Source: Planctomycetota bacterium (GTDB taxonomy: Bacteria > Planctomycetota > B15-G4 > SIAN01). From it: a stretch of DNA of 64,000 nucleotides. Below, in pieces: positions 10,390 to 53,476 of the stretch (position 1 is the first letter of the stretch; every line of letters starts with the position of its first letter). Location of the stretch: assembly GCA_009691715.1 (NCBI GenBank), contig SIAN01000004.1, positions 13,101 through 77,100 on the forward strand, written 5' to 3'. The translations under genes and the position numbers were made by a program. The notes beneath the pieces were generated by a model. It was not told the origin of the DNA and made no database searches. It worked only from the letters and a program-made list of their open reading frames with translations.

Positions 10390-10427
10390 CACGTCCGATA
10401 TGGTGCGGCAGCGAGGATGCCGCGTCC

Positions 10428-11450: not shown

Positions 11451-11629
11451 CGCGGCCGGCGGAATACAGCGCGACTTGGTGCTGATTCGGTCGCACGCTC
11501 CGCGCCGCACCGCAGGCTGGAGTCGCTAAAGCTCGCCAGTATCATCCGCCGACCTTTGGCCAAAGGCGGGTGCCCCACGAGGGCGCCAGGCGAAAGAGGC
11601 TCGACTCACCAGAACGAGGAGATTCGTCC

Positions 11630-11929
11630 GTGACCTACGTCGTCGGCAAGCCGTGCGTGAAGTGCAAGTACGGGGACTGCGTCGAGGTGTGCCCCGTCGA
11701 GTGCTTCTTCGAGATGGAAGACATCCTGATCATCGAGCCGGCCACCTGCATCGACTGCAGCGCGTGCGAGCCGGTCTGCCCGCCGCAGGCGATCACCGCG
11801 GGCGATCGCGCCGACGCGGAGTACACGGCGCTGAACGCCGCGGGGCCGTTCCCCGAGGACAAGAAGCGCAACAAGAAAGACCAGGTCACCCACGGTCCGA
11901 ACTGGGACGCGGGATTGGCTGGCGGCTGA
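11630..11929 (+). CDS. fdxA: 7Fe ferredoxin ([3Fe-4S][4Fe-4S])
   Basis: A GTG start follows a GGAG SD. The N-terminus [27 protein letters not shown] is the canonical FdxA sequence, and a second cluster motif [12 protein letters not shown] is present. Confidence 0.85.
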
Positions 11930-11998
11930 GCGCGCCTTGATCGTCGAACGATCCGACTGCGGCCTCGCGCGGGGTTCCTGCGCGGGGCCGCGCGCGTC

Positions 11999-39532: not shown

Positions 39533-40573
39533 TCACTGCGATCGGCGCTCGAGCGGCGGCAGCGTCCCGCGCGGCGGCTCGGGCGCGAATCGCAGCTTTC
39601 GCTCCACGACGCACCAGACGAAGGTGGCGGCGCCGTAGGCGAAGTAGAGCTGGTGCAGGAACAGGCCGGCCAGCGCCGTCGCCAGGCCGGCCGCGCGCCA
39701 CAGCACGACGTAGAACGGCGCGCTGACCAGCGCCGCCACCAACAGGAGCCCGAGCGCCGCACCGAGAAACGGTCGATGCATCAGGCCGAGCGCCGCCGTC
39801 GCGAAGAACGCGCCTGCAATCAGCGCTTTCAGCCGCTCGGCGTTGCTGACGTTCAGCACGGCACCGGCGAGCTCTGGATGCTGCAGCAGCCGGCCCCACG
39901 GCAGCGCGCGGCGGAAGACGTCGGTGTGGAGCATGCTCCGAAGCGTCCAGCGCTTGAGGTGGGTGCCCTGCACCTCGGGCGCGAGCAGGATCTTTCCACC
40001 GGCGCGTCGCAGCCGGTAACCGAGCTCGATGTCCTCAATCGATGGGACGGTGTAGTAGTCGGCGTCGAAGCCCCCCGCCGACAAGAACGCGTCGCGTCGC
40101 ACCGCGCCGCAGCCGGCCCAGAAGGTCGACGCCTCGCCGGCGTGCGTCGTGTGGGTGTGGTGGTGCAGCAGGTTGCGGTAGCGCGAGACGACGCCGGGAG
40201 CGTTCGGCTGCTCGTCATAGGCGCCGAACAGGGCGACGATGTCGGCGCGCCGCGCGAAGTGGCGCGCGACCAGCTCCGGCACGTCGTCGTGCATCACGAC
40301 GTCGGAATCGACGAACAGCAGGATCGCGCCGCGCGCCGCGAGTGCACCCTGGTTGCGGCAGGCGCCGGGCCCCTTGCGCCCACCGGACGGGATGACGGTG
40401 AAGCCCGCGGCCTGGCACTGCCGTGGCCCATCATCGGTGCAGCCATCGTCGACGACGATCACTTCGGCGACACGGCCCGCGGCGAGCGCGCGCTGAAGCG
40501 GCGGCGCCACCCGCGTGAGGTAGCTCGCGGCGTTGTACATCGGCACGACGATGCTGATCGCGGCGCTGCTCAT
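39533..40573 (-). CDS. Family 2 glycosyltransferase
   Basis: It starts ISIVVPMYNAASYL and has the VVDDGCTDD DxD region. Its start overlaps the deacetylase stop (ATGA). Confidence 0.75.
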   Translation of the reverse strand: MSSAAISIVVPMYNAASYLTRVAPPLQRALAAGRVAEVIVVDDGCTDDGPRQCQAAGFTVIPSGGRKGPGACRNQGALAARGAILLFVDSDVVMHDDVPELVARHFARRADIVALFGAYDEQPNAPGVVSRYRNLLHHHTHTTHAGEASTFWAGCGAVRRDAFLSAGGFDADYYTVPSIEDIELGYRLRRAGGKILLAPEVQGTHLKRWTLRSMLHTDVFRRALPWGRLLQHPELAGAVLNVSNAERLKALIAGAFFATAALGLMHRPFLGAALGLLLVAALVSAPFYVVLWRAAGLATALAGLFLHQLYFAYGAATFVWCVVERKLRFAPEPPRGTLPPLERRSQ

Positions 40574-41322
40574 GCGCCGTACGCCGCGCCCTTGACGCGT
40601 CGCAGGAGACGCCGCCACGCGATCCATGCACGCGTGCGCGGCGCGAAGAGCGGTAGCCGGCGCGCCGGATCGCGCAGGTACCAGCTGTCGAGCCGAGGCC
40701 ATTCGTGGACGCGAGCGGCACGCCTGGCCGCAACCTCGGGCAGATAGTCGAGCAGCGTCGTGACCGCGCTCGACCAGTGCAGAGCGACCTCTGCGCGGCT
40801 CGCGGCGTCATGCCAGCCGTAGGGATAGGCGAAGTGGCTCACCCGCGAGCCAAACCGCTGCTCGAGCGCGGCCTTGCTGTCGACCAGTTCGCGGCGCGCG
40901 GCATCGGGGGCGAGCGCACGGCAGTCGACGTGGTTGGCGGTGTGGCCGCCGATCGTGCCACCGGCGGCGAGCAGTTCCTGCAGTTCCGTCTGGCCCATCA
41001 GCTCGAACCGCGGGATGGCCGCCGTCTGGCCAGGCCAGCGGTTGTCGCGGCCGATCCAGTCGGAGACGACATAGGCCGTGAACGGCAGTCCGCGCCGCGC
41101 GAGTCGCGGCAGCGCGTCGGCATGCACGGAGCGAAAGCCGTCGTCGAAGGTGAGCGCCACGCGCGGCGCGGCTCCCGTTGACGGCACCCGCAGCGCGTCG
41201 AGCGCGACGATCGCGACTCCCTCCGCCTGCAGGCCATCGAGCAGCCGCTCGAAGTCTTCCGGCGAGTAGGAGAGCACCGAGCCGCTGCGGTCGATGCCAT
41301 GGAAGGTGAGGAGCGCGTCCAT
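40570..41322 (-). CDS. Polysaccharide deacetylase (NodB-homology domain)
   Basis: It contains LTFDDGFRSV (the TFDDG motif) and a His-rich metal site. Its start overlaps the GT4 stop (ATGA). Confidence 0.75.
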   Translation of the reverse strand: MDALLTFHGIDRSGSVLSYSPEDFERLLDGLQAEGVAIVALDALRVPSTGAAPRVALTFDDGFRSVHADALPRLARRGLPFTAYVVSDWIGRDNRWPGQTAAIPRFELMGQTELQELLAAGGTIGGHTANHVDCRALAPDAARRELVDSKAALEQRFGSRVSHFAYPYGWHDAASRAEVALHWSSAVTTLLDYLPEVAARRAARVHEWPRLDSWYLRDPARRLPLFAPRTRAWIAWRRLLRRVKGAAYGA

Positions 41323-42527
41323 CAGCGCGCCTCCGTGGCGACCGCGCGCCGGAAGCAGGCGACCGCGTCGGCGGCGCCGCGCTCCCAGGTGAAACGGCGC
41401 GATCGGGCAAGCGCTTTCGCGGCGAGCAGCGCGCGCTGCTGCGGCCGACCCAGCACTTCCGACAGCGCCGCCTGCAGCGCCATCGCATCGAGCGCGGGCA
41501 CCAGCAGGCCGCCGTCGCCCACCACCTCCGGCAGCGAGCCGGCGTCGCTCGCCACCACCGGCGTCGCGCAGCTCATCGCCTCGAGCGCCGGCAAACCGAA
41601 GCCTTCGAGCAGCGACGGCAGGACCAGCGCGCACGCTCCTTGATAGAGCGGCACGAGATCGTCGTCGGCGACGAAGCCGGTCCAGTGGACGCGCGCGGCG
41701 AGCCGCGCATCGGCGGCGATCTGCTGGCGCAGCGGAGCGGCGCTGTCGAGGAAGCCGTCCGCCTTGGGATCGCCCACCAGCACGAGCGTTGCGTCGCCGC
41801 TTGCGCCATTGCTTGCGTTGGCGAGCAAGCGCGAGAACGCCGTGAGCAGCGTCGCAAGGTTCTTGTGTGGGCTGATGCCGCCGACGAACAGGAAGTAGGG
41901 TCGATCCTCCGGGATTCGCAGTCGTCGCAACGCCGCCGCGAGCGCCGCGTGATCGGTCGGCGGCCGGAAGCGCGCGTCGGCGCCCTCGCTCACCACGTCG
42001 ATCCGATCGGCGGCGATCCCGTAGACGCGGCCGACGTCACGCCTCGACGCCTCGCTCACCGTCATCACGCGCGTCGCCTGACGCGCCGCGAGCCACGATT
42101 TCGCCCGCCAGAACCACTCGCTCTTCCGATCGGGGAAGACCATCCTCGGGAAGGTCTCGGCGATCGCGTCGTGGAAGCAGACGACCGCGCGCGTGCCGGG
42201 CCAGAGCGGGAAGGCGCTGTAGACGGCCGGCAGGAACAGCAGGTCGGCCTGGCAACGACGAGCCGCGCGCGTGAACGCAAACAGCTCAGCGGGGCGACGC
42301 GCATCGCCGGCGACGGCAGCGTCGGTCACGCTGCGGCCGGGTTGCGCGTTCAAGCGCGGCAGCGCCAGGAGCGGTTCCGGCAGATCGCCCGGCGCGGCGT
42401 CACGGTCGACCAGAAGCACGAAGTCGAAGCCGTCGCTGCGGCGCGCCAGCGCGGCCAGCAGCTCGCGCGCGAAACGCCCGAAGCCGCGGCGGTTGAAGCA
42501 GCAGGAGGCGTCGACGGCGATGCGCAA
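41322..42527 (-). CDS. Family 4 (GT-B) glycosyltransferase
   Basis: The C-terminal EGFGLPALEAMSCATPVVASDAGSLPEVVGDGG is the canonical GT4 E-X7-E region. Confidence 0.8.
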   Translation of the reverse strand: MRIAVDASCCFNRRGFGRFARELLAALARRSDGFDFVLLVDRDAAPGDLPEPLLALPRLNAQPGRSVTDAAVAGDARRPAELFAFTRAARRCQADLLFLPAVYSAFPLWPGTRAVVCFHDAIAETFPRMVFPDRKSEWFWRAKSWLAARQATRVMTVSEASRRDVGRVYGIAADRIDVVSEGADARFRPPTDHAALAAALRRLRIPEDRPYFLFVGGISPHKNLATLLTAFSRLLANASNGASGDATLVLVGDPKADGFLDSAAPLRQQIAADARLAARVHWTGFVADDDLVPLYQGACALVLPSLLEGFGLPALEAMSCATPVVASDAGSLPEVVGDGGLLVPALDAMALQAALSEVLGRPQQRALLAAKALARSRRFTWERGAADAVACFRRAVATEAR

Positions 42528-42699
42528 CCGGAGCGACCTCAGAGTGCCTGACAGAATGGACGCGTGACGCCGAGGCCAAGCGAGGGCACCTGGGGCGAGG
42601 AGACCGAAGCAGGCGACTCTGAAGAGTCGCCGATGGAGGTCGACGAAGTCCTGGGTGACCGCAGCCAGCCAAACGTAGTGGACCTTCTGTCAGGCACTC

Positions 42700-44154
42700 T
42701 CAGTCCTCGACCACGTGGGTCGCGAAGACCGCACGATGCTTCGCCCACGCGGCGCGGTCGAACTCGGCGCCGGTGAGGCAATCGACTGCTGCCCATGCCA
42801 TCGCCAGCGCGTGGTGGGTGTTGTCGTGGGCGAAGAGTCCCTGCCGCCCGTAGGTGAGGAAGCGCGGCAGCGTGTCGCAGAAGCGATCGACCTGTTCGAG
42901 CGGCTGCTCGTAGCCGTTCAGGTAGATCGGATAGGCCTGCGGCAAACGCATCACCTTCACCGCAGTCGGCGGCGCCGGCAGCGGCAGGCCGGCGCGGGCG
43001 AGATCGGCCGCAACGACCGCACCGAGCTCCGCCTCGCTCATCTTCCAGAAGCGATCGCCAGCGTCGCACGGCAGCTCGGCGCAGAGCGTGGTCGCGCCCG
43101 CGGGTGCGCCGAGGTCGCCGTAGTTCTTCGGTTCCGACAGGCGCGTAATCGTGATCTCGGCTTCGGGGAAATAGTGGGCGTCGTACTCGGTGAACTGCGC
43201 CACTGGGAGGCGCAGGTAGACCAGCAGCATCGCGCGGTAGCTCACCTGCGCCGCTGCCGCGAACACCGGCGCGGGCGGCGGTTCCGTGAGCAGTTTCGGG
43301 ACGAGCGTGACCGGCAGCGTCGACCAGACGTGGTCGGCTTCAAGCACGGACTCGCGGCCGCCACGATCGATCGCGATCCGCCACGGCGCGTCTCCACGCG
43401 GCGCTTGCAGCGACTTCACCCGATGTTCGAGCAGCAGCTCGGCGCCTGAGGACTGCGCGGCGCGCGCCAAGGCGTCGGAAAGCTGTCCGTAACCGTGGCG
43501 CGGGTACCAGAACCGGCCGCTGCCGGGCTTTTTGAAGCCGGGAACCGCGTTCAAGACCTTGCGCACCAGCTTCAGCACGGTGCCGGCGGAGACGCGACGA
43601 CGCGCCTGGATGCCCGACAGCTGTTCCGGTCCGCGGCCCCAGATCTTGCGCGCGTACGGAAAGTAGAAGCGATCGCACATGGTCGGTCCGAGGTTCTGGC
43701 TCAGGACCGATTCAAACGTGTCCGGCGTGCCGGGCGCGGGACGCCGCAGTCGCTTGGTCGCGCCGTCGTAAGCGAGCGACACGCCGAAACTCGGCGGCAG
43801 TCGCGTCAGCAGATCGAGCGGCTTCAGCGGAAAATGGATGAAACGGCCGAGCAATCGGATGCGGCCGTGGCGCGGGCGGTCGAGCAGATCGGCGCCCAGC
43901 AGCTGCTTCAGATCGGCGAGGATCGACGGCTCGCAGGCGGGATGGAGCCGATGGCTGCCGAAGTCGAGCTTCTGGCCTTCCCACTCGAAGCTGCCGGCAT
44001 TGCCGCCGAACCACGGATTCTGTTCGACCAGCGTGACCGACGCCTTCTTCTGCAACGCGAGCTGCCACGCGCCACCGAGTCCGGCCGGGCCTCCGCCGAG
44101 CACGACCACGCGTGGGCGCCCCGCACTGCCAACGCGGTCATTCGTGACGCTCAT
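42700..44154 (-). CDS. FAD-dependent oxidoreductase (amine-oxidase/UDP-galactopyranose-mutase-like Rossmann fold)
   Basis: It has an N-terminal dinucleotide-binding motif VVVLGGGPAGLGGAWQLA followed by FGGNAGS. Its start overlaps the upstream membrane protein stop (ATGA). Confidence 0.65.
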   Translation of the reverse strand: MSVTNDRVGSAGRPRVVVLGGGPAGLGGAWQLALQKKASVTLVEQNPWFGGNAGSFEWEGQKLDFGSHRLHPACEPSILADLKQLLGADLLDRPRHGRIRLLGRFIHFPLKPLDLLTRLPPSFGVSLAYDGATKRLRRPAPGTPDTFESVLSQNLGPTMCDRFYFPYARKIWGRGPEQLSGIQARRRVSAGTVLKLVRKVLNAVPGFKKPGSGRFWYPRHGYGQLSDALARAAQSSGAELLLEHRVKSLQAPRGDAPWRIAIDRGGRESVLEADHVWSTLPVTLVPKLLTEPPPAPVFAAAAQVSYRAMLLVYLRLPVAQFTEYDAHYFPEAEITITRLSEPKNYGDLGAPAGATTLCAELPCDAGDRFWKMSEAELGAVVAADLARAGLPLPAPPTAVKVMRLPQAYPIYLNGYEQPLEQVDRFCDTLPRFLTYGRQGLFAHDNTHHALAMAWAAVDCLTGAEFDRAAWAKHRAVFATHVVED

Positions 44155-45176
44155 CCGTGGCGCACCTTCATCTCCGGGTTGATCTTTGGAGTCGCCAGCG
44201 GCGAACGGCGCCGGAGCACCAGCCACACCGCGCCGCAAAACAGGCTGCCGACGATCAGCACGCCTTGCCACAAGAACGACGCGGCCAATGCGCGCGCCTT
44301 CACCTCATCGAACGGCAGCGCGGTGGCGACGACCAGCGGCGCGAACAGCACCGCGAACACGCCATCGCGCACGCCGATGCCGTTGAAGCTCGCCGGCGCC
44401 AGCCCCGCCAGCTTGGCGAGCGACCAGGCGAATACCCACGCGGCCGCGCTCGCCTCGAGCCCGAGCGCGCGGCCGAGCACCGCATTCAGCGCGATCAACG
44501 AGCCCTGCATCGCCACTCCGCCCGCGAGCGAGAAGAACAGCACCTTCGGTCGGCGGCCCTGTCGACGCAGCGCGATCAGCAGTTGCGCGATCCGCCGGCG
44601 CCAACGCGGCGGCCAGCGTTTGAGCGGCCGTCGCACCAGCACCAGCAGCGCGACGACGCCAGCGGCAGCAGAGAGCGCGACGACCAGCACCAGCAGCGTC
44701 CCCGCGGTTCCTTGCCGATCGAGGCCGACGAACGCACCCGCGGCCACCACCAGCACGCCAAGCGCCATCAGATCGAGCAGACGGTCGGCCACGCCGCCGA
44801 GCACGGCACCTTCCATCCGGCCGCTCTTCCTCCCCGCGAGCAGCGCGCGCAGCACGTCGCCGCCGACGATGCTCGGCAGGAACAGGTTCGAGAACAGGCC
44901 GGCGCAGTAGCACTCGACCGACTGCCGCAGCGTGAGGCGCGCGCCGGCTTGGCCAATCACCATCCGCCATTTGAAGACGCCAAACAGGTGGCAGGCGACG
45001 AAGCCAAGGACCACCAGGAAAAACGTCGACGGCGGGACACTCGCGAGCGCGGCGCGCAGTTTCTGCCATGGCACCATGCGCACCAGCAGCGCCAACACCA
45101 GCGCGCTCGCGGCGAGCCGGAAGGCGAGCTTGCGCCGACTCGATGCGGCGACCGGGCCTGGCGGCGCGCGGTTCAT
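44151..45176 (-). CDS. Multi-TM membrane protein, lysylphosphatidylglycerol-synthase-TM-region (MprF flippase-like, UPF0104) family
   Basis: It has about 8 TM helices with basic loops. It resembles the flippase-like TM domain found with GtrB-type enzymes. Confidence 0.55.
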   Translation of the reverse strand: MNRAPPGPVAASSRRKLAFRLAASALVLALLVRMVPWQKLRAALASVPPSTFFLVVLGFVACHLFGVFKWRMVIGQAGARLTLRQSVECYCAGLFSNLFLPSIVGGDVLRALLAGRKSGRMEGAVLGGVADRLLDLMALGVLVVAAGAFVGLDRQGTAGTLLVLVVALSAAAGVVALLVLVRRPLKRWPPRWRRRIAQLLIALRRQGRRPKVLFFSLAGGVAMQGSLIALNAVLGRALGLEASAAAWVFAWSLAKLAGLAPASFNGIGVRDGVFAVLFAPLVVATALPFDEVKARALAASFLWQGVLIVGSLFCGAVWLVLRRRSPLATPKINPEMKVRHG

Positions 45177-45180
45177 GCGA

Positions 45181-46074
45181 TCAGCGCTTCATCGCCATCC
45201 GCGCGTTCTGGTCGGCGAGGAGGCCCACGGACCAGACGACGAGCGCACCGAGCAGCGCCAACACGGCACTCTCCGACAAGTTGTCGAGGAAGCAGTCGTA
45301 GGCGAACTTCGCGGTGCCGGCGGCGAACAGCAGCGCACCCACCGGCAGGAAGAACTTGAGCGGGTGGAACAGCACCACCGTCCGCAGGATCAGCAGCAGG
45401 AAGTCCCACGCGTGGCGCGGCCGGATCTTGCTGGCACCGTGCCGCTTGCCGTAGTCGATCGCCACGAACTTGATCGGGTGCCCGTTGCAGGCGCACGACA
45501 GCGTGATCGTGGTGGTGAAGGAGAAACCTTGCGGCAGCAGGTGCTCGTAACGCTTGACCAGCGACTTGCGCATGAGCCGCATGCCGGAGTTTAGATCGGG
45601 GATGCGCAGTCCCGAGAGGTAGCTCGCCAATCGGGTGAGCACCCACTTGGCCGGCCGGCGCACCAGCGGGATGTTCACGTTGGCACCGATGCGGGCGCCG
45701 ACGACCATCTCGTGCTGTGCCGCCTGTTCGAGGAGTTGCGGGATCGCGGCCGACGGGTACGTGCCGTCCGCGTCGGTGATCAGGATCCAACCATGCTTCG
45801 CGGCGTTGATGCCGGTCTTCAAGGCCGCGCCGTAACCCTCGTTGCGGACCTTGCGCAGCACGCGCGCGCCGGCAGCGGATGCCTCTTCGGCGGTCGCGTC
45901 GCGCGAACCGTCGTCGACGACGATCAGCTCCCATTCCCAGCCGCTCTTCGCCATCGCCTCGGCGACGGCGCGAACCTGTGCCGCGACGTGCGGCCCCTCG
46001 TTGAACGCGGGGATCACGACGCTGACGGCGCGCTCTTTCGCGCCCAATGCCGGTTCGCCGACCTCCTCGATCAA
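45181..46074 (-). CDS. GT2 polyprenyl-phosphate sugar transferase (GtrB/ArnC/DPM1-like)
   Basis: It contains VVIPAFNEG...LIVVDDGSRD...ITDADGTYP and two C-terminal TM helices. A TTG start after a G-rich SD is proposed. Alternative starts exist up to 46233. Confidence 0.7.
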   Translation of the reverse strand: MIEEVGEPALGAKERAVSVVIPAFNEGPHVAAQVRAVAEAMAKSGWEWELIVVDDGSRDATAEEASAAGARVLRKVRNEGYGAALKTGINAAKHGWILITDADGTYPSAAIPQLLEQAAQHEMVVGARIGANVNIPLVRRPAKWVLTRLASYLSGLRIPDLNSGMRLMRKSLVKRYEHLLPQGFSFTTTITLSCACNGHPIKFVAIDYGKRHGASKIRPRHAWDFLLLILRTVVLFHPLKFFLPVGALLFAAGTAKFAYDCFLDNLSESAVLALLGALVVWSVGLLADQNARMAMKR

Positions 46075-46239
46075 GAGCCGCCCCCCGCCTTGCCGCCGTG
46101 GACCGCCGTCTGCACTGCCCTGCCACTGCCTGCCGCCTCTTCGGTGGCGCCGCAGTCGGAGCTTGACCGCGGATTGTAGGGCGCCGGAGCGGAAGGCCGT
46201 TCCGCATCGCGCGACGCGGCGTCGGCTGCTCACTCCAGT

Positions 46240-47763
46240 TCAGTGACCCGCGCGCGCCACGAAAACCGTCCCGCCCCCCATCGATCCGGGCAGCTCGGCG
46301 ACGACCTCGAAGTCGCGCTGCACCACCTCCCAGACATCAGGTCGCGCGGCCGCGAGCTGTTCGGGCAACGTGTAGACCAGCCAAGTCGTTGCGGCAGCGG
46401 CGCGGATCGCGGCGAGATCGGCCGCCGTGTCGGCCTTCGTCCAACTCGGCGCGTAGTAGTCGGGCAACGCCCGCTTCGCCGGCCCGACCGCAACCCGGGC
46501 GTCGTTCGGCTTCGCGCGCGCCTCGACCAAGTCGCGCGCGCCGACGAAATCCTGCTTCGGGTGGGCATAGACCCGTTCGAGCGAGAGCGAGGATGCCGCC
46601 GCCACCGCGAGCACGACGGCGATCCCCCACAGCTCGGTCCGGCGCACCTTGCAGCCCGGCAGGTTGCACGACAGCCAACCGCCGCTGATGCGCGCGCCGC
46701 GCACGACGACGATCGCCACGAAGCCGGCCTCGAAGAAGAAAAAGCGCGGATAGAGGTGGCGATGGAGCGTGAGCAGGACCGCAAGCGCGAGCGGCGGCGC
46801 CAGCAGGTGCATCAGCACGAAGGCGCGCCGGCCGTTGCGCCAGAGCGAAACCGTGCCGATCAGCGCCAGCACGCCGGCGGCAGCGATGCCGATCAGCGCG
46901 AACGGCGATACGCCGAGGCTTTCGATCATTTGGCGCACGGCCCACAAGGGGCTCGTCCACGGCTCGACCTTGGCAACGGTGACGCTCGCGCCGCTGGCGC
47001 GCGCGGTGAACGCAGCGACCAGATCGCCGGCGAGTGGCGCGTAGAGCAGCAGCGCCAGGGCCGCCGCGCCGCCCATCGCGGCGAGGGCCGTCGCGGTCGC
47101 ACGCGGCAGCGGTGCTGGGGCGCAGTCGACCAAGGGTCGCACCGGTCCCGTCGCCGTCGTCTGCGCCGGCCAGAACCGGAGCCCGGCCCACACAAGCGCG
47201 TGGCCGACGAATGCGAACACCGCCGTCAGGTGGGTGTACGCGGCAAGAGCGGCGAACAGCGCGTAACGCCACGCACCACGGCGCGTCGGCGCCGACAGGA
47301 GGCGCAGGAACTCGCTGGTCGCCAGCACCGTGAACAGCAACATTCCGGTGTAGCCGCGCGCGTTCTGCGAGAACCAGACATGGTGCGCCGAGACCGCGAG
47401 CAGGAGCGCTGCCAGCAGTCCGGTCGTCTCGTCGATCAGTTGCCGCCCGAGTCGGGCGACGGCGAACAACGACGCCACGCCGAAGAGCAGTGCCGGCAGG
47501 CGGACGATCGCCTCGCTCTCGCCGAACGCGACCACTGCCAGACGCGCCAGCACTGAATAGAGCGGGTGCTGGTTCTCGCTGCCGTAGCTAATGACGATCG
47601 TCGCAAGCGGCTGGCGCACGATTGCGACCAGAGTGTCGACCTCATCGATCCAGAACGACGACGACAGGCCGACGAGACGCAGCCCGAGGCCGAGCACGAG
47701 CAGCGCCGCCAAGAGCAGCATCCCGCGCCGACCGAAGCCGGCCGTCGGCGCTGCTTCGGTCAC
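46240..47763 (-). CDS. GT-C family glycosyltransferase (ArnT/PMT, family 39/83-like)
   Basis: It has about 12 TM helices and an N-terminal DE motif region (FWIDEVD), typical of lipid-linked sugar transferases. A GTG start overlaps the stop of the small ORF upstream (GTGA). Confidence 0.7.
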   Translation of the reverse strand: MTEAAPTAGFGRRGMLLLAALLVLGLGLRLVGLSSSFWIDEVDTLVAIVRQPLATIVISYGSENQHPLYSVLARLAVVAFGESEAIVRLPALLFGVASLFAVARLGRQLIDETTGLLAALLLAVSAHHVWFSQNARGYTGMLLFTVLATSEFLRLLSAPTRRGAWRYALFAALAAYTHLTAVFAFVGHALVWAGLRFWPAQTTATGPVRPLVDCAPAPLPRATATALAAMGGAAALALLLYAPLAGDLVAAFTARASGASVTVAKVEPWTSPLWAVRQMIESLGVSPFALIGIAAAGVLALIGTVSLWRNGRRAFVLMHLLAPPLALAVLLTLHRHLYPRFFFFEAGFVAIVVVRGARISGGWLSCNLPGCKVRRTELWGIAVVLAVAAASSLSLERVYAHPKQDFVGARDLVEARAKPNDARVAVGPAKRALPDYYAPSWTKADTAADLAAIRAAAATTWLVYTLPEQLAAARPDVWEVVQRDFEVVAELPGSMGGGTVFVARAGH

Positions 47764-47963
47764 TTGTCGGCGATGTCTTCCGAGCCGTACGGCAGACGCG
47801 TCTGGATGTCGCCGACGTCGAGGTCAAGTTCACCGTCGCCATCACGACGGACCGCCGCGGTCTCCCCTGGCTTGCCCATCGGCAAGGTCGCGTCGAACTG
47901 CGATCCCGGCACGGGCTTGCCCGGCTCGATCTCGCCGGCAGCCTTCTGATCCTTCGCTTCCAT
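47760..47963 (-). CDS. Small acidic protein (67 aa), candidate modified peptide/substrate
   Basis: An AGGGAGAG SD precedes the start, and the ORF is translationally coupled to the GT-C gene. The product is hydrophilic and Asp/Glu/Gly-rich (…DGDGELDLDVGDIQTRLPYGSEDIADK). Confidence 0.4.
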   Translation of the reverse strand: MEAKDQKAAGEIEPGKPVPGSQFDATLPMGKPGETAAVRRDGDGELDLDVGDIQTRLPYGSEDIADK

Positions 47964-48023
47964 CGCGGCGCTCTCCCTGTCAGCACGCAGCCTGTCAGCG
48001 CGAAGCTGAGCCGCGCGCGAAGT

Positions 48024-48239
48024 TCAACGCTCCTGGCCCGTGAACCCTTCCTTCAGCCGATCCGTCGGCGCGATCTCCTCGATCGCGAAGTCGAATCCGT
48101 CCGCTGCCACCGCCGCCGGCAACCCGGTCGCGGCGGCGGTCGGCGCGGAAGGCGACGGCGAACCTGCTGGCGCAACGGTCGAGTCGCGCGACGGTCGAAC
48201 CGCGTCGCCATCCGCCATCGGTCGGTTGTCCATCGTCAT
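48024..48239 (-). CDS. Small Ala/Pro/Ser-rich acidic protein (71 aa), candidate modified peptide/substrate
   Basis: A GGAG SD precedes the start, which is 25 nt after the rSAM stop. The C-terminus DGFDFAIEEIAPTDRLKEGFTGQER loosely resembles the C-terminus of the next small ORF. Confidence 0.35.
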   Translation of the reverse strand: MTMDNRPMADGDAVRPSRDSTVAPAGSPSPSAPTAAATGLPAAVAADGFDFAIEEIAPTDRLKEGFTGQER

Positions 48240-48264
48240 CGTGGCGCTCCGCCTGAAAGGGCCG

Positions 48265-50769
48265 TCAAACCGCCGACGGCTTGCAGTAGAGGTGCATCGT
48301 TTCGGCGACTCGCACCGGATCGGCGGCAGCCGGAGCGACGGTGAGATCGCCCGTCCCGTTCGCCGCCGATGCCGAAGACGCCAACGACGACGCCAACGAC
48401 GACGCCGAAGGCGACGCCGCAGTTCCTCGCGGCCGCTCGCTGACGCCGAACGGTCGCGCCGTGACCAGCCCGCGCACCAACAACTCGCCGAGGAACTTCT
48501 CGACCTTGGGCTGCTGCGCTGCAGTGAAGCCGCCGACGATCTCCGCCACCGTCTTGCGCCCATCGCACGCCTCGAGCAGGCGCGCCGCATCCTTGCCGAC
48601 GTGCAGCAAATCGCTTGAACGCGCGCGGTAGACGGCGAAGTTGCGCGCCGGTGGCGCGGCCGGTACTTGGCTCGACATCTCCTCGAACAGCTTTTCCTTG
48701 AAGTTGCCCGACTGGTAGCGCGGCTTGAGGACGGCGCATTCCGCCTCGTTCAGCTTCTCCGCGATCGTGCGCAGGTCGTAGGGCATCTCGACCAGCCGGT
48801 TGCCATCGGGCAGCCGCAGGCGAGCGGTGGCGAGCTCGGCGGGTGCCGTCTCGGCGACCGTGACCTCGCTCTTGCCGTGCAGGAACGACAGATCCCCGTA
48901 ACGGCAGAGGTAGAGGAAGTAGTGGCTCTTCAGCTCGAAGAGCAGCAGGTTGTCGCCGCGGAAGAGCGGGAACTCCTCGCGCAGCACCTTCATGAAATCG
49001 AAGAAGAGCTCGCGTGCTTCGCGCCGCGACATGCCGCCGTCGACGATCTGCGTCGCGGAGCCGCTGCTGCCGTCCTGGCAGGAGGCGCCGTCGGGATGGC
49101 CGTGGTCGTCGCCGTGGGTCTTGCCGTACTGCTTCACCACCGGCAGCGTCGTGCCGGCGCGCGCCGGAATCCAGTCGTAGTAGACCTGCAGATCCTTCTC
49201 GGGATCGATCAGGATGCGCTCGACGCCGTAGGTCTGCGGGTGCTCGAAGACCTTGCTCAGGTGGTCGACATAGAAGATCCGCAGCGACACCTCGTCGACG
49301 CAGTCCTTGTGCGAACGCAGCCAGGCGAGCGTCTCGAGCGCTTCCTCGCGCGTCTCGGTCGGGAAGCCGATCATCGTGTAGAGCGTGTTGCTGATGCCGA
49401 CCTTGGCGAGCCGGCGCAGGATCCCCTCCGCCTCTTCGATCGCGGTGCCCTTCTCCATCAGGTCGAGCAGGCGTTGCGAGCCACTCTCGAAGCCGAACGC
49501 GATGCGCCGGCAACCGGACGCGTAGAGGTCGCGGCAGAGCTCGTCGGTGAAGAGGTTCTTCTCCAGGCGCGCGTCGGTCCACCACTTGATGGCCAGGTCG
49601 CGCTTCTTCAGTTCGATCGGGAGCTGCTTGAAGACCGGTGGCGGCATGTCCTCGACGACGAAATAGATGACGTCGCTGTTCCAGAGCTTCGTCACCTTCG
49701 CGATGTCGTCCATCACCTTGTCGAGTCGACGCTGGCGGAAGCCGGGGCCGATCACCTTGTACAAGGTGCAGAAGGCGCATTTCTCCCAGTAGCAACCGCG
49801 CGTGATCGCAAGCGGCAGCGCCAGCTTCGGCGAGTAGTAGCGCTCCATCGGCATGCCGTCGAACTCGGGCGTCGGCAGCGAGTCGATCGAGAGCGGGCTC
49901 GCCGGCGCATTGACGACGACCTTGTCGCCGTCCTTCCAGATCGCGTTGCCGACCCCGTCAGCGGGATTCTCCTTGCCGGCCGCGACGTTCTTCGCCAGCT
50001 CGAGCAGCGGCCCTTCGCCTTCGAGCACGATCGCACTGTCGATGGCGGCGAAGACCTTTCCGCTGCGGGTCGCTTTCTCCCCGATGTAAGCGAGCAGTCC
50101 GCCGCCGACGGTCACATGCACGTTCGGCAGCGCCTGCTTAATCATGCGGGCAAGTGCCAAGCCCGGAATCACCTGGCTGGTGTAGGTGAGCGAGATCCCG
50201 ACCAGGTCGGGCTTCATCGCGATGATCTCGGGCAACGCCTTGTCGCGGAAGTATTCGCAGAAGAAGTTGGCCTGCTCGTCGAAGACGGCGGCGAGAACCT
50301 CCGCCTCCTTCTCGATCGACCACGACAGCGTGTAGTTGTGCGGCGTGAGCGAACTCGGGTAGTGCTCGGCCGAGATCAGGCGGAACGCGCGGTCGAGAAG
50401 CTTCACTGCGCGCAGGTAGCGGTCGTAGTCGTAGAACGCCTCGTCGTTGCGCAGCGTGAAGAGCGCCTCGTCGATCCCCTCCACCACCGAGTCGGCCGAA
50501 GCGTGCGCCTCGGCCAGCACGCGGAAGCGGTCCATCTGCGGCAGCGGCAGCGGCCGATCGACCGGGTGCGCGGCGAACGCGGTCGCGACCCGATCGCGCG
50601 CCAGCGCGAGACGCTCCTTGGCCAGGAACCACTCGTGCGCTTCGAGGTTGAGATCGCGCTGGTGGCTGTCGGCGAAACCGTTCGCGCGCAGGAAGGCGAC
50701 CAGTGACGGCAGGGCGAGGTACGGTTGCGTCGGGTGAGCCTGCGGCGGGAAGAGCAGAAGAGTGCGCAA
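48265..50769 (-). CDS. B12-binding-domain radical SAM enzyme with long C-terminal extension (possible PqqD/RRE-like segment)
   Basis: It has an N-terminal B12-binding-like domain (LLLFPPQ...). The rSAM cluster LAITRGCYWEKCAFC is a Cx4Cx2C spacing variant. It is 834 aa long, and the C-terminus contains LLEACDGRKTVAEIVGGF...FLGELLVRGLV. A TTG start follows a GGAGGA SD. Confidence 0.75.
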   Translation of the reverse strand: MRTLLLFPPQAHPTQPYLALPSLVAFLRANGFADSHQRDLNLEAHEWFLAKERLALARDRVATAFAAHPVDRPLPLPQMDRFRVLAEAHASADSVVEGIDEALFTLRNDEAFYDYDRYLRAVKLLDRAFRLISAEHYPSSLTPHNYTLSWSIEKEAEVLAAVFDEQANFFCEYFRDKALPEIIAMKPDLVGISLTYTSQVIPGLALARMIKQALPNVHVTVGGGLLAYIGEKATRSGKVFAAIDSAIVLEGEGPLLELAKNVAAGKENPADGVGNAIWKDGDKVVVNAPASPLSIDSLPTPEFDGMPMERYYSPKLALPLAITRGCYWEKCAFCTLYKVIGPGFRQRRLDKVMDDIAKVTKLWNSDVIYFVVEDMPPPVFKQLPIELKKRDLAIKWWTDARLEKNLFTDELCRDLYASGCRRIAFGFESGSQRLLDLMEKGTAIEEAEGILRRLAKVGISNTLYTMIGFPTETREEALETLAWLRSHKDCVDEVSLRIFYVDHLSKVFEHPQTYGVERILIDPEKDLQVYYDWIPARAGTTLPVVKQYGKTHGDDHGHPDGASCQDGSSGSATQIVDGGMSRREARELFFDFMKVLREEFPLFRGDNLLLFELKSHYFLYLCRYGDLSFLHGKSEVTVAETAPAELATARLRLPDGNRLVEMPYDLRTIAEKLNEAECAVLKPRYQSGNFKEKLFEEMSSQVPAAPPARNFAVYRARSSDLLHVGKDAARLLEACDGRKTVAEIVGGFTAAQQPKVEKFLGELLVRGLVTARPFGVSERPRGTAASPSASSLASSLASSASAANGTGDLTVAPAAADPVRVAETMHLYCKPSAV

Positions 50770-50782
50770 GGATGTTCCTCCG

Positions 50783-51133
50783 TCAGTTTGGCGAGGTGAA
50801 GCTATCGGCCGGCAGCGCCAGAATCACGCTGGCGATCGCACCGCGCGCCTCATGGAGACGGAAACCGCGTGCCGCCAGTTCCCGCTTGGCTTCGCCGCTG
50901 AAGGCGAGCGCGATGACCCAACCGCAGTCGGCGACGAGGTTTGCCAGGGCCAAATAGTCCCGGAACACCCGGCCGGGCGATGCCGGCAACGCGCGCCGAT
51001 CGACGAAGCGGACTTCGTTCCCGTGCCGCTCCCAGACGACGCAGTCGGCGGCGCGATGGAAGCGCTCGTTGACGCCGATGCCGTCGCGCGAGATGACGGC
51101 GATCCGTCGCGAGGGCCGTGCGTCGTGCGACAC
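50783..51133 (-). CDS. NifX/NifB-type (dinitrogenase FeMo-cofactor-binding domain-like) small protein
   Basis: The 116-aa sequence RIAVISRDGIGVNERFHRAADCVVWE...VRFVDRR matches the Nitro_FeMo-Co domain pattern. The GTG start is 2 nt after the upstream stop. Confidence 0.45.
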   Translation of the reverse strand: MSHDARPSRRIAVISRDGIGVNERFHRAADCVVWERHGNEVRFVDRRALPASPGRVFRDYLALANLVADCGWVIALAFSGEAKRELAARGFRLHEARGAIASVILALPADSFTSPN

Positions 51134-51135
51134 CG

Positions 51136-53157
51136 TCAGTAGCCCGCGGCCGGGTCGACGACGGACAGGAGCTGCTCGCCCGCGGCGAAGCGCCGCAAGT
51201 TCTCGCGGTAGAGCAGGAACTGCCGCTCTGCCGCGCTCGCGCTGTCGGCCGCGACGTGCGGGGTGATGACGACCTGCGGGAAGCGCCAGAGCGGGTGGTC
51301 GGGCGGCAGCGGCTCGGGATCGGTCACGTCGAGCGCGGCACCAGCGAGCCGCCCCGACTCGAGCGCGGCGATGAGCGCGGCGGTGTCGACGCACTTCCCG
51401 CGCGCGACGTTGCAGAGCCGAGCGCCCGGCTTGAGCGCGGCGAAGAAGCGCTCGTCGCAGAGCCGCGTCGTCGCGGGGGTGAGCGGCACGCAGATGAAGA
51501 CGATGTCGGCGAGCGGCGCCAGCTCGAGCAGCCGATCGGGCGGCTCGACGCGCTCGACTTCGGAGGAGACGCCGCGACCGGAGGGGGTGGTCGCGATCAC
51601 TCGCGCGCCGAAGGCCGCGGCGCGCCGCGCGATCTCGCGGCCGATGCCGCCGAGGCCAGCGATCAGGACCGTCTTGCCGCGGAGCTCGTCCATGCCCGCG
51701 GGCGCGACGTCGCGCCATTCGTGCGCGCCGCGCTGGTTCTCGCCAAAGGCCGGCAGCCCGCGCATCAGCGCCAGCATCATCCCGAGCGCGTGATCGGCGA
51801 TCTCCGGGCCGTAAAGCCGCTGCGCGTTCGTGAGCGCGACGCGACGCTGCGCGATCGCCGGAATCCCGACGTAGCGCTCGACTCCCGCGGAGCCGACCTG
51901 CGCCCAGCGCAGCATCGTTCCGCGCGCCAGCAGCTCGGCACTGCAGGCACCGATCAGCCCGTCAGCATCGACGACGTGCGCCAGCGCGGCGGCCGGGTCG
52001 ACTGCGGCGACCAGCTCGAGTTCGGGGACGGCAAGGCGCAGCCGCGCGACCAACGCATCATCGCTGTCGACGACCAAGACCTTGCGCGGCGCCTTCCAGC
52101 CGGGCGCTTCGCGCGACGGCGATGGGCCCGGCACGAGGCCGAGCTCTTCAGTGAGCAGCAGTGGCGGTCGGCGCCCGGTGAACTCGCCGAAGACGTGAGC
52201 GACGTTCTCTGCGCGCGAACTCGCCGCGACACCGGTCCATTCCTGGTACCACGGCAGGTCGAGCCCCGACAGGATCCCGCCTTCGTCCTGTCCCGTCGCG
52301 ATGCCGACGGCGACCGCGTCGCGCAGATCGATCAACCAGCGTCGCTGGCGGAGGAGCAGCTCGGGCCCACCCTCCGCGCCGTGCCCCGGACAGACGATCC
52401 GAGGTCGCAGCGCGATCAGCCGGTCGAGCACTGCAATCCAGTTCTCGCTGTCGCTGTCGCCGAGGAAGTTGTGCGCCCCGTTGACACAGAGGTCGCCGGT
52501 GAAGAGCACGCGTTCTTCCGGCAGCCACGCGACGGCGTCGCCGCGAGTGTGGCCGCGGCCGTAGTGCAGGAACTCGACGCGGCGGGCGCCGCTACCGACG
52601 ACCAGTCGCTCGTCGAATCGGAGCGATGCGCCGACGAAGCGGGTGCCGGCGAGCTGCGTGCGCTCGGCCGCGTCGGTCGACTGCTCGATGCGGCGGAACG
52701 CGGCGAGGCCGCGCGTTTCGAGCAATTCGGCGCACCGCGAATGGGCGGCGACCAGTGCGCCGCCGTCGGCGTGGACGGCGTTCCCGAAACTGTGGTCCCA
52801 GTGGTCGTGGGTGTCGAAGACCAGCCGCACCGGCAACGCGCTCCGTTGCGCGATCTCCTCGCGCAGCGCGCGCGCGACCACCGGCATGCTCGCCTCGATC
52901 GCGACGATCTGGTCGTCCTGAAGGACGAAGCCGCTGTTCGCGCCCTCGAACACCGGCGCGATCGACGCCTCGGCGAAGAAGACGCCGGGCGCAACTTCGC
53001 GGACGGTCGGCCGCGAAGTTGCGGCAAGTGGCGCAGTTGGCGCAGCTACCGCGGCAGCGGCAGCCGGCGCGTGCGCAGCCGTCGGATCTGGCAGCGGCCA
53101 GCAGAACGGTGCCGCAGCCAACACCGCGACGATCGCGATCCTCGTGCTCGAAACCAT
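51136..53157 (-). CDS. Fusion protein: secreted metallo-beta-lactamase-fold hydrolase + D-isomer-specific 2-hydroxyacid dehydrogenase (NAD-binding)
   Basis: The N-terminus has a signal peptide (MVSSTRIAIVAVLAAAPFCWPLP) and MBL motifs (VFDTHDHWDHSFGN, CPGHG). The C-terminus has GKTVLIAGLGGIGREIARRAAAFGARVI and ITPHVAADS. The + strand ORF 51118..53226 is Arg-rich antisense junk. Confidence 0.75.
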   Translation of the reverse strand: MVSSTRIAIVAVLAAAPFCWPLPDPTAAHAPAAAAAVAAPTAPLAATSRPTVREVAPGVFFAEASIAPVFEGANSGFVLQDDQIVAIEASMPVVARALREEIAQRSALPVRLVFDTHDHWDHSFGNAVHADGGALVAAHSRCAELLETRGLAAFRRIEQSTDAAERTQLAGTRFVGASLRFDERLVVGSGARRVEFLHYGRGHTRGDAVAWLPEERVLFTGDLCVNGAHNFLGDSDSENWIAVLDRLIALRPRIVCPGHGAEGGPELLLRQRRWLIDLRDAVAVGIATGQDEGGILSGLDLPWYQEWTGVAASSRAENVAHVFGEFTGRRPPLLLTEELGLVPGPSPSREAPGWKAPRKVLVVDSDDALVARLRLAVPELELVAAVDPAAALAHVVDADGLIGACSAELLARGTMLRWAQVGSAGVERYVGIPAIAQRRVALTNAQRLYGPEIADHALGMMLALMRGLPAFGENQRGAHEWRDVAPAGMDELRGKTVLIAGLGGIGREIARRAAAFGARVIATTPSGRGVSSEVERVEPPDRLLELAPLADIVFICVPLTPATTRLCDERFFAALKPGARLCNVARGKCVDTAALIAALESGRLAGAALDVTDPEPLPPDHPLWRFPQVVITPHVAADSASAAERQFLLYRENLRRFAAGEQLLSVVDPAAGY

Positions 53158-53323: not shown

Positions 53324-53400
<77 letters not shown>

Positions 53401-53476
53401 CGTTCCGATCGGGAAGGGCTAAGAAGCTAGGAGCGCTCCGCTCAGGAATCAAGACCGCGGCCAAGCAGACTGGGCT

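Follow-up and report, generated by a model that had tools for sequence, protein, structure and literature searches.

A row of genes on the minus strand of contig SIAN01000004.1, from a Planctomycetota bacterium, encodes a B12-binding radical S-adenosylmethionine (radical-SAM) enzyme, two short acidic peptides referred to here as peptides D and E, and a set of proteins for lipid-linked sugar transfer. The row lies within a stretch of 64,000 nucleotides (the window), and all nucleotide positions and strands are those of the whole window. The gene row probably consists of two units side by side, an enzyme/peptide unit and an envelope sugar-transfer cluster. Genes were picked by third-position GC together with domain content, as the window has a GC content of about 70 % and long chance open reading frames (ORFs) are common in it, with 117 ORFs of at least 50 residues in 16 kb. 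In the direction of reading, the row comprises:

53325-53402, minus strand: tRNA-Pro(CGG), at the upstream end of the row, directly upstream of the following gene
51136-53157, minus strand: fusion of a metallo-β-lactamase (MBL) fold and a D-2-hydroxyacid dehydrogenase, 673 residues (Pfam PF00753, Lactamase_B, and PF02826, 2-Hacid_dh_C)
50783-51133, minus strand: NifX-like (Nitro_FeMo-Co) protein, 116 residues (PF02579, 27.3 bits against a cutoff of 26.3)
48265-50769, minus strand: B12-binding radical-SAM enzyme, 834 residues (PF02310 and PF04055)
48024-48239, minus strand: peptide D, 71 residues (ORF, tail conservation, alignment A3)
47760-47963, minus strand: peptide E, 67 residues (ORF, tail conservation, alignment A2)
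46240-47763, minus strand: GT-C glycosyltransferase, PMT_2/ArnT-like, 507 residues (PF13231)
45181-46233, minus strand: ORF of a family 2 glycosyltransferase (GT2), the likely gene being 45181-46074 with 297 residues (PF00535, Glycos_transf_2)
44151-45176, minus strand: membrane protein of the LPG_synthase_TM or "flippase-like domain" type (LPG_TM protein), 341 residues (PF03706)
42700-44154, minus strand: flavin adenine dinucleotide (FAD) oxidoreductase of amine-oxidase fold, PRK07208-like, 484 residues (PF01593 and PF01266, Amino_oxidase/DAO)
41322-42527, minus strand: family 4 glycosyltransferase (GT4), about 172 nucleotides after the FAD gene (Pfam)
40570-41322, minus strand: carbohydrate esterase family 4 (CE4) polysaccharide deacetylase (Pfam)
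39533-40573, minus strand: second GT2 (Pfam)

The ORF list and the Pfam and NCBIfam matches confirm the nine genes from the MBL fusion to the FAD oxidoreductase in the places and with the domains given for them in an earlier note on this DNA, and the junctions that it quoted all read as it had them. The fusion gene and the NifX-like gene are separated by 2 nucleotides, and the NifX-like gene and the radical-SAM gene by 13 nucleotides that hold a GGAGGA; the radical-SAM gene starts with TTG and is followed after 25 nucleotides by peptide D, which lies 60 nucleotides before peptide E. The stop codon of peptide E overlaps the start of the GT-C gene (GTGA), the GT2 and LPG_TM genes are 4 nucleotides apart, and the LPG_TM and FAD genes overlap in an ATGA. 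Stored independent gene calls for the same contig reproduce these junctions up to the GT-C start. The description of the row as a tightly coupled operon fits the short junctions and fits less well at two looser places: the most likely start of the GT2, a TTG at 46074 deduced from homologs of 297 residues, leaves about 163 nucleotides after the GT-C gene, and some 172 nucleotides separate the FAD gene from the GT4. The row does not end at 42700, as the GT4, the deacetylase and the second GT2 carry it on to 39533.

Judging from gene spacing, the row may be co-transcribed. Promoter and terminator scans returned nothing above the shuffled expectation, and a scan of 42-55 kb for a cobalamin riboswitch or other RNA element found only the tRNA-Pro. 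Tight gene packing in one metagenome-assembled genome (MAG) is no proof of a shared pathway. Further upstream of the tRNA lie genes for SelB, a CT398-like zinc-ribbon protein and a long RpoD.

The radical-SAM enzyme is laid out as an N-terminal domain of about 170 residues, a B12-binding domain (residues 176-258; PF02310, 35.8 bits), a radical-SAM core (residues 322-484; PF04055, 61.9 bits), helical linkers, a C-terminal RiPP recognition element (RRE; RiPP, a peptide synthesized ribosomally and modified post-translationally) and a disordered tail. Its best NCBIfam match is TIGR03975, a family of RiPP C-methyltransferases (105.3 bits, E=3e-30, below the cutoff of 281.85), and the second is the P-methylase PhpK (103 bits against a cutoff of 600). 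The models of BchE (65.8 bits, cutoff 481), HpnJ (65.9, cutoff 578) and HpnR (48.1, cutoff 650) do not reach equivalog level, and the ApyD model NF050148 gives 58.6 bits, below its cutoff of 750. By these scores no curated family claims the enzyme, and no close characterised homolog, such as a BchE, was found. Among 312 homologs, those with an organism name are almost all from Planctomycetota. Homologs are labelled "hypothetical", or, in several JGI names, YgiQ or anaerobic Mg-protoporphyrin IX monomethyl ester cyclase (BchE); the automatic names BchE and YgiQ are not supported by the family scores.

When the PDB is searched with a profile built from 14 homologs, the solved sequence that comes closest is OxsB (E=2e-13). 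An AlphaFold (AF2) model computed on 101 homologs has a predicted local distance difference test (pLDDT) score of 87.6 and a predicted template modelling (pTM) score of 0.87, and its Foldseek matches are TsrM, OxsB, MgmA, TokK and CysS (E-values of 1e-13 to 5e-16, identities of 14-20 %). The fold is that of cobalamin-dependent radical-SAM enzymes, and methylases make up most of these neighbours. The canonical spacing of the radical-SAM cluster motif is CX3CX2C. Here the spacing is a non-canonical CX4CX2C: direct reading of the sequence places the motif at C326-x4-C331-x2-C334 (RGCYWEKCAFC; codons 49768-49794, minus strand), and all of 101 aligned homologs have R324, G325, C326, Y327, C331, F333 and C334. 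An insertion rich in His, Gly and Asp, KTHGDDHGHPDGASCQDGS, at residues ~548-568 (nucleotides ~49066-49128, minus strand) occurs only in the closest relatives and is disordered in the model; the version in the homolog P0004 is longer and more His-rich.

Two further features lie at the C-terminal end of the enzyme:

48430-48648, minus strand: PqqD-like RRE, residues ~708-780 (PF05402 and domain model)
48268-48429, minus strand: disordered C-terminal tail, residues 781-834 (pLDDT <50), a low-complexity linker that leads to a conserved end, DLTV...RVAETMHLYCKPSAV

A search of this part of the enzyme for PqqD or RRE domains was positive. PF05402 scores 20.6 bits in the window enzyme (E=5.8e-4), just under its cutoff of 23.4, and passes that cutoff over the aligned region of the homologs P0057 (25.5 bits) and P0070 (26.1 bits); a precomputed PF05402 match is present in 10 of 120 listed homologs. 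Modelled in isolation (pLDDT 89.4), the domain consists of two strands followed by three helices, and its ten best PDB matches are all RREs, including PqqD, TbiB1 with its leader peptide (probability 0.93, TM 0.60), CteB and TfuB1. Weak matches to PbtF (E=0.026) and TfuB1 are also returned by the sequence profile of the domain. By these matches the C-terminal domain is a PqqD-like RRE.

The end of the disordered tail follows the consensus (D/E)L(T/A/E)(V/I)...R(V/A)AE(T/A)(M/L/I)HL(Y/H)CKPS. All 23 aligned homologs with an identity of about 64 % or more keep it, and the 55-59 % clade lacks it; no comparable extension is present in the aligned members of the more remote groups 2 and 3 described below. 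The clade that has it is the same clade that has the NifX-like gene. The layout of the tail, a strand motif and then a fixed C-terminal core, resembles that of the free peptides. The tail could be a cis-fused substrate or an autoinhibitory pseudo-substrate.

Peptides D and E, both probable precursors, are hydrophilic and acidic (pI 4.3) and contain no Cys. Peptide D has a variable N-terminal part, a strand motif FDFAIEEI and an invariant tail RLKEGFTGQER; it is 100 % identical to the NCBI entry "hypothetical protein EXS13_03020" of a Planctomycetes MAG. Peptide E carries an FDATLPMG motif, a strand motif ELDLDLGDIQ and the invariant tail RLPYGSEDIADK, and 14 of the 16 invariant columns in its alignment (A2, 36 sequences) fall within the last 22 residues. 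Both ORFs have a third-position GC (GC3) of 0.79 and a GGAG-type motif upstream of the start, and homologs have been called in other assemblies, 35 for peptide E and 10 for peptide D. In the last ten codons of both peptides, 11 loci of the window's own group (group 1) use two to seven codons per position and almost always encode one amino acid, a mostly synonymous variation that points to selection on the protein. Base composition, GGAG-type motifs, homologs elsewhere and conserved tails together indicate that peptides D and E are real genes.

No Pfam model covers either peptide, and NCBIfam returned only a spurious match for peptide D (E=0.007); five representatives of the four tail types gave no match there. 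A profile of peptide E searched against 1.84 billion representatives retrieved about 15 small proteins of 33-73 residues and nothing else credible. In the literature searches, the tail motifs appeared in no paper found and no description of this enzyme/peptide system was met with.

The scan of species-representative genomes yielded 520 candidate loci, and 80 loci (designated by L numbers) with an enzyme of 34-81 % identity along the full length. Planctomycetota MAGs account for nearly all of the 80, joined by the cultured Engelhardtia mirabilis Pla133 and two MAGs labelled Gemmatimonadota. After the radical-SAM gene, 67 of the 80 have a small ORF on the same strand whose C-terminal tail is one of four. 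Of 76 peptide stops, 69 lie at most 600 nucleotides from the end of the radical-SAM match. Six more loci have less than 400 nucleotides of DNA after the enzyme, and seven have none of the four tail motifs. The tails define three groups:

Group 1 (that of the window), enzyme identity ≥52 %, 9 loci: two peptides, ...(F/L)D(F/L)x(I/V/L)EE....RLKEGFTGQER and ...LDLDLxxxQ(T/S)RLPYGSEDIADK; in the 52-55 % clade the second peptide ends ...DEFEGDRRYGREDIADK
Group 2, enzyme identity ~38-43 %, 18 loci: one peptide, ...FKIxPADPKNxFDFEDVADK
Group 3, enzyme identity ~34-39 %, 40 loci: one peptide, ...LDLxxLDLxVExVEERISPSETNVFDK

The peptides of a group are near-invariant over their last 8-12 residues and vary freely in the N-terminal two-thirds, and the tails stay near-invariant while the enzyme drops to 34-40 % identity. 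The second-peptide tail of group 1 can be summarised as YG(S/R)EDIADK; an (I/V)(A/F)DK end is common to three tail types, and the fourth, that of peptide D, ends in -ER. The peptide D tail follows the enzyme in L001-L007, L027, L053 and L081-L083. In L090, of the genes from the MBL fusion to peptide E only the enzyme and the two peptides are kept, a minimal unit. Across the loci examined, a peptide with a fixed C-terminal tail is the only partner of the enzyme that is kept. The kinship of the peptide groups rests on position and the shared end pattern, given that no significant alignment joins the groups; a search of the 1.84 billion representatives with the peptide E profile retrieved none of the group-2 or group-3 peptides.

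The seven loci that lack all four tails, L022, L028, L030, L035, L036, L045 and L047, have ample flanking DNA; a search in them for a further peptide type gave low-complexity noise only. Five of the seven share one or more of three downstream gene clusters (~1020, 238 and 281 residues). These loci may use a fifth peptide type. In Engelhardtia mirabilis Pla133 the peptide ends ...ERISPRETNVFDK, and two radical-SAM genes are present. In one gene product from a metagenome call, P0047, the radical-SAM frame is joined to a peptide ending DRLKEGFTGQER; a frameshift or an assembly error is the probable cause.

The genes upstream of the enzyme have a narrower distribution. The NifX-like gene precedes it in L001, L003, L081, L086 and L088 and is confined to relatives of at least 60 % identity; L090 lacks it, and none was seen in L083. 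The MBL/dehydrogenase fusion precedes the NifX-like gene only in L003, L086 and L088, the closest relatives (~75 % or more). Its MBL half resembles SoxH-related hydrolases ("quinoprotein relay"; TIGR04559, 97 bits against a cutoff of 280). The N-terminus of the fusion is hydrophobic and signal-like, and an NAD-dependent domain outside the cytoplasm would be odd if the protein were exported. By their distribution, the NifX-like protein and the MBL fusion are putative accessories only of this sub-clade.

Other neighbours recur elsewhere. In group 2 a protein of about 600 residues with FG-GAP/ASPIC (UnbV) repeats is encoded directly upstream of the enzyme, in L084 at 8223-10004 with a 4-nucleotide overlap and in 15 other group-2 loci, e.g., L009-L014 and L016-L024. 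A related FG-GAP protein follows directly after the peptides in L081, a group-1 locus, which makes FG-GAP a recurring partner. Group 3 (L026-L080) has a second, paralogous B12 radical-SAM gene (~600-680 residues) directly upstream, e.g., at 7500-9284 in L085 and ~8040-9902 in L046. In 26 group-3 loci a divergently transcribed upstream gene encodes a protein of 624 residues without a Pfam domain. Downstream there is a multihaem cytochrome c in 18 loci and a VWA protein in 17, and cytochrome and NADH-dehydrogenase genes also occur as neighbours in this group.

Among the sugar-transfer genes of the window, the GT-C scores 32.2 bits with PF13231 (PMT_2, cutoff 26.1) and 33 bits with TIGR03663 (Agl23), below the cutoff. 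The GT2 gives 99 bits with PF00535, and its best family models, AglJ, Dol-P-hexose transferase, PpgS and ArnC, reach 57-99 bits against cutoffs of 325-529. For the membrane protein PF03706 gives 99 bits and TIGR00374 44.2 bits (cutoff 43.2), and for the FAD protein NF005547 gives 234 bits, below its cutoff of 380. Pfam and NCBIfam searches of the module's proteins found no GtrA, ArnE/F or EamA-type flippase. The deacetylase is 58 % identical to a Polysacc_deac_1 gene of L086, and the order of the module's genes is the same in L086 and L088.

The linkage of these genes to the enzyme is patchy. A first automatic clustering of neighbours was confounded by shadow ORFs at high GC, and tblastn and stored gene calls were used instead. 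When all window proteins were searched by tblastn against the 80 loci, the cluster, taken as GT-C, GT2, LPG_TM, FAD, GT4 and second GT2, stood beside the enzyme only in L003 (81 % identity) and L001 (79 %, on a short contig). Stored gene calls add L086 and L088, so that the cluster lies beside the enzyme only where the latter is at least ~75 % identical. L088, with a peptide E of 76 % identity, keeps the 4-nucleotide overlap of peptide E and PMT_2 and has an AhpC gene between PMT_2 and GT2; L001 probably keeps the overlap too. In L086/L087, with a peptide E of 67 % identity, a reverse-strand DUF3413/sulfatase gene stands between the peptides and PMT_2. In the more distant relatives sampled the cluster is absent: in L081 (60 %) the NifX-like gene and the enzyme are followed by two peptides and an FG-GAP protein, and L083 (53 %) has the enzyme, two peptides and an uncharacterised gene. 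In the remoter loci of groups 2 and 3, tblastn gave at most isolated weak GT2 or GT4 matches and no cluster. Two candidates for a GT-C partner in group 3 were discarded: the recurring 624-residue gene is unlike the window GT-C (hhalign probability 0.2 %), and a PMT_2 gene found only in L026, L033 and L085, the last two on the same contig, is unrelated to it.

L090 (enzyme ~71 %) also lacks the cluster. There the enzyme, preceded by an opposite-strand sigma-54 activator, is followed by the two peptides, an acyl-CoA dehydrogenase that starts 3 nucleotides after the second peptide, and an AMP-dependent ligase (dehydrogenase and ligase at 9081-11931 of the locus). Homologs of the last two genes are present in the window:

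35923-37065, minus strand: acyl-CoA dehydrogenase, 73 % identical to the L090 gene
32656-34254, minus strand: AMP-ligase, 65 % identical to the L090 gene

They lie beyond the sugar-transfer cluster and a plus-strand groEL, and in L088 the dehydrogenase directly follows the last GT2. L081 and L090 share their flanks (POR, Rieske/cytochrome b, epimerase and transketolase), both without the cluster. Because the dehydrogenase adjoins the peptide in L090 and lies beyond the cluster in the window, the cluster looks like a lineage-specific insertion; judged by gene order, its insertion between peptide E and the dehydrogenase in one sub-lineage would be the simplest history. The dehydrogenase/ligase pair of L090 could also be functionally linked to the peptides.

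These comparisons divide the proposal of the earlier note, a radical-SAM-modified, glycosylated peptide or a peptide-primed glycoconjugate. A RiPP-like unit of the enzyme and the two peptides is supported, by an RRE and conserved adjacent peptides. A glycosylated peptide, suggested by adjacency only, would be confined to this one lineage. The proposed coupling to a trio of GtrB, flippase-like protein and GT-C did not hold up, as it occurs only in L001, L003, L086 and L088: in related genomes the glycosyl genes are scattered and the enzyme and peptides are not. The glycan genes are probably neighbours of the peptide pathway and no part of it. A hopanoid-type reading, in which the GT2, the B12 radical-SAM enzyme and the LPG_TM protein would be an HpnI/J/K/L-like set, was rejected as well; HpnJ, HpnR and HpnB fall far below their cutoffs, and the glycosyltransferase genes are unlinked to the enzyme in most relatives.

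The explanation that fits best, with a probability of about 0.68, is a RiPP-like maturation unit in which the enzyme, probably a C-methylase, acts on the peptides, next to a separate envelope-glycan module. Module 1 would span 47760-50769, with lineage-specific helpers up to 53157, and module 2 would span 39533-47763, the two lying head to tail on the minus strand. The domain content, the RRE fold, the adjacency of the peptides and the purifying selection on them across related genomes, and the patchy linkage of the glycan genes are shown by the comparisons. We infer the role of the peptides as substrates and of the tail as the modified core, methylation as the reaction, and the independence of the glycan module.

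In this scheme the C-terminal RRE would bind the two co-encoded acidic peptides by taking up an alternating hydrophobic/acidic segment (LDLDL, FDFAI, YVFKI or LDLTVETV) as an added β strand, as in TbiB1 and other RREs. The probable docking motifs of the window peptides are FDFAIEEI and ELDLDLGDI, and docking would put the tail, 10-20 residues downstream, into the active site. There the enzyme may modify one or more residues of the invariant tails RLKEGFTGQER and RLPYGSEDIADK, with the (I/V)(A/F)DK end common to three tail types as the obvious candidate region. The likeliest chemistry would be transfer of a methyl group from methylcobalamin to an unactivated carbon, as in ApyD, PoyC, MgmA, TokK and CysS, a guess prompted by the nearest curated families, most of the structural neighbours and ApyD all being methylases. 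Module 2 would be a conventional envelope-glycan route made up of a polyprenyl-phosphate sugar synthase, a membrane protein, a GT-C, cytoplasmic GT4 and GT2 enzymes and a deacetylase, and its target is probably an envelope polymer or lipid.

ApyD of the aminopyruvatide pathway in Burkholderia thailandensis is an RRE-containing B12 radical-SAM enzyme that β-methylates its precursor ApyA at the penultimate Tyr (PMC11117315). By analogy it would be the closest characterised counterpart in architecture and logic, and it is the only characterised RRE-bearing B12 radical-SAM enzyme found in the literature searches. Both systems combine such an enzyme with action near the C-terminus of a short ribosomal precursor, the substrates in the window being predicted ones. 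The window enzyme, however, falls far below the cutoff of the ApyD model and the host phyla differ; the window row lacks the MNIO, the P450 and the O-methyltransferase of apy clusters, and the precursor motif is GYLYD in apy and ...EDIADK and ...GFTGQER here.

PoyB and PoyC, class B radical-SAM methylases that act on unactivated carbons of ribosomal peptides, represent the best-scoring curated family of the window enzyme (TIGR03975, rSAM_ocin_1, proteusins). Unlike proteusin precursors, the window peptides have no NHLP or Nif11 leader according to Pfam and NCBIfam, and the core is one short conserved segment instead of a long, heavily modified one; the window enzyme differs from PoyB and PoyC in its C-terminal RRE and its extra N-terminal domain of about 170 residues. 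With TsrM, OxsB, MgmA, TokK and CysS it shares the B12 Rossmann domain and the partial TIM barrel, and with OxsB a similar length as well. The structural matches to these five enzymes stop short of the RRE-like domain, which matched RREs only when searched alone, and none of the five is known to carry an RRE.

Mycofactocin (MftA/B/C and MftF) is a peptide product with a small conserved C-terminal core, modified by a radical-SAM enzyme in an RRE-dependent manner and glycosylated later by a GT2. It differs from the window system in that MftC is a SPASM enzyme and not a B12 enzyme, in that the MftF model reaches only 42.5 bits here (cutoff 280) with no MftB, MftD or MftE, and in that the glycosyl genes here are not conserved with the enzyme/peptide system. 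For module 2 the comparable pathways make polyprenyl-phosphate sugars: ArnC/ArnT, GtrB/Gtr, PpgS/Rv3779 and archaeal AglJ/AglD/Agl23 likewise have a GT2, a flippase-like membrane protein and a PMT_2/ArnT-like GT-C. Every equivalog model of these pathways is far below cutoff for module 2, whose membrane protein is an LPG_synthase_TM and not a GtrA or ArnE/F, and which adds a PRK07208-type flavoprotein, a GT4, a CE4 deacetylase and a second GT2.

Several points weigh against the two-module explanation as formulated above. The modification site and the chemistry are guesses, and B12 radical-SAM enzymes also contract rings, cyclise and form C-P or C-S bonds (PMC11117315). At sequence level the best match in the PDB is a non-methylase, OxsB, and non-methylases of the BchE type share the fold. 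The RRE score of the window enzyme is below the Pfam cutoff, and the Foldseek E-values for so small a domain are weak (0.3). No protease or exporter is conserved with the enzyme/peptide pair in the loci examined, unlike in most antimicrobial RiPP clusters, and an invariant core is atypical of RiPP natural products. The GTGA overlap of peptide E and GT-C, present also in L088 and probably in L001, argues for co-expression, and a lineage-specific functional link between the peptides and the GT-C may exist. That overlap also supports a scheme in which the whole row is one pathway, the modified peptide being exported and glycosylated by the GT-C with a sugar supplied by the GT2 and flipped by the LPG_TM protein, or else priming a glycoconjugate. 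The modules are neighbours in every sampled relative with an enzyme at least ~75 % identical, the conserved tails contain Ser, Thr or Tyr, and mycofactocin with MftF offers a precedent for a glycosylated RiPP-derived product, although the MftF model matches weakly. Such a pathway is nevertheless quite improbable: the linkage is lost in the relatives of 71 %, 60 % and 53 % identity, the cluster was not found in the remoter loci, a reverse-strand gene separates the modules in L086, an AhpC gene sits inside the glycan module of L088, and the backbone of acyl-CoA dehydrogenase and AMP-ligase points to an insertion. A gap of about 163 nucleotides follows the GT-C gene, and the peptides have no signal sequence and no conserved exporter, so that a periplasmic GT-C would have no obvious access to them.

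A proposal that overlaps the two-module explanation and differs only in the fate of the peptide would make it a carrier, with its C-terminal (D/E)(K/R) elaborated by the enzyme and by enzymes encoded elsewhere and released as a small molecule or redox cofactor, comparable to pyrroloquinoline quinone (PQQ), mycofactocin and the pearlins. Tails that are near-invariant across very divergent enzymes, as in cofactor-type precursors, would fit this, as would the lack of any exporter, immunity gene or protease conserved in the cluster and the wide distribution of the system within one phylum; the NifX-like and dehydrogenase neighbours in the window clade and the cytochrome and NADH-dehydrogenase neighbours in group 3 would fit as well. 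It is improbable all the same, as no cleavage or release enzyme is conserved, no dependent family of enzymes has been identified, the neighbour sets differ (FG-GAP/ASPIC in group 2, a second radical-SAM enzyme in group 3), and three tail types and a two-peptide version are hard to fit to a single cofactor. The peptides might instead be regulatory or chaperone partners that bind the winged-helix domain without being substrates, with the enzyme acting on a lipid, sugar or tetrapyrrole. The JGI names, among them the anaerobic Mg-protoporphyrin cyclase and YgiQ, would agree with this, and so would OxsB, a small-molecule enzyme of similar length and the top sequence match in the PDB, and the lipid and glycan genes adjacent in the window lineage. 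With BchE, HpnJ and HpnR at 48-66 bits against cutoffs of 481-650, a docking domain that matches RREs, the peptide-binding modules of RiPP pathways, a peptide as the only partner kept across the loci examined and no small-molecule pathway conserved nearby, this is a highly improbable account.

The enzyme/peptide pair is apparently undescribed and common in Planctomycetota. In its logic it would resemble known RRE-guided peptide maturation by radical-SAM enzymes. It would be a new combination, as far as sequence comparison can tell, of a new enzyme family that has an additional N-terminal domain and a C-terminal RRE, four new types of precursor tail, and no protease or transporter alongside. 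If the inference holds, B12 radical-SAM enzymes that modify peptides form a large family, so far uncurated, in at least 80 species-level genomes, and the three groups of tails with cleanly defined cores would be a convenient natural series for studying the chemistry of this enzyme class on peptides. A cultured carrier of the system exists in Engelhardtia mirabilis Pla133. The near-invariant cores, and the lack of genes for export and immunity, are a hint that the role in Planctomycetota is physiological and not antibiotic. A widespread, housekeeping-type product derived from the peptide (a cofactor, signal or envelope factor), with a fixed core and a B12 radical-SAM enzyme with a built-in RRE, is a tentative suggestion with the odds against it; if it were true together with the reading of the enzyme's own tail as a substrate or pseudo-substrate, the system would represent a new RiPP class with an unusual enzyme-substrate logic.

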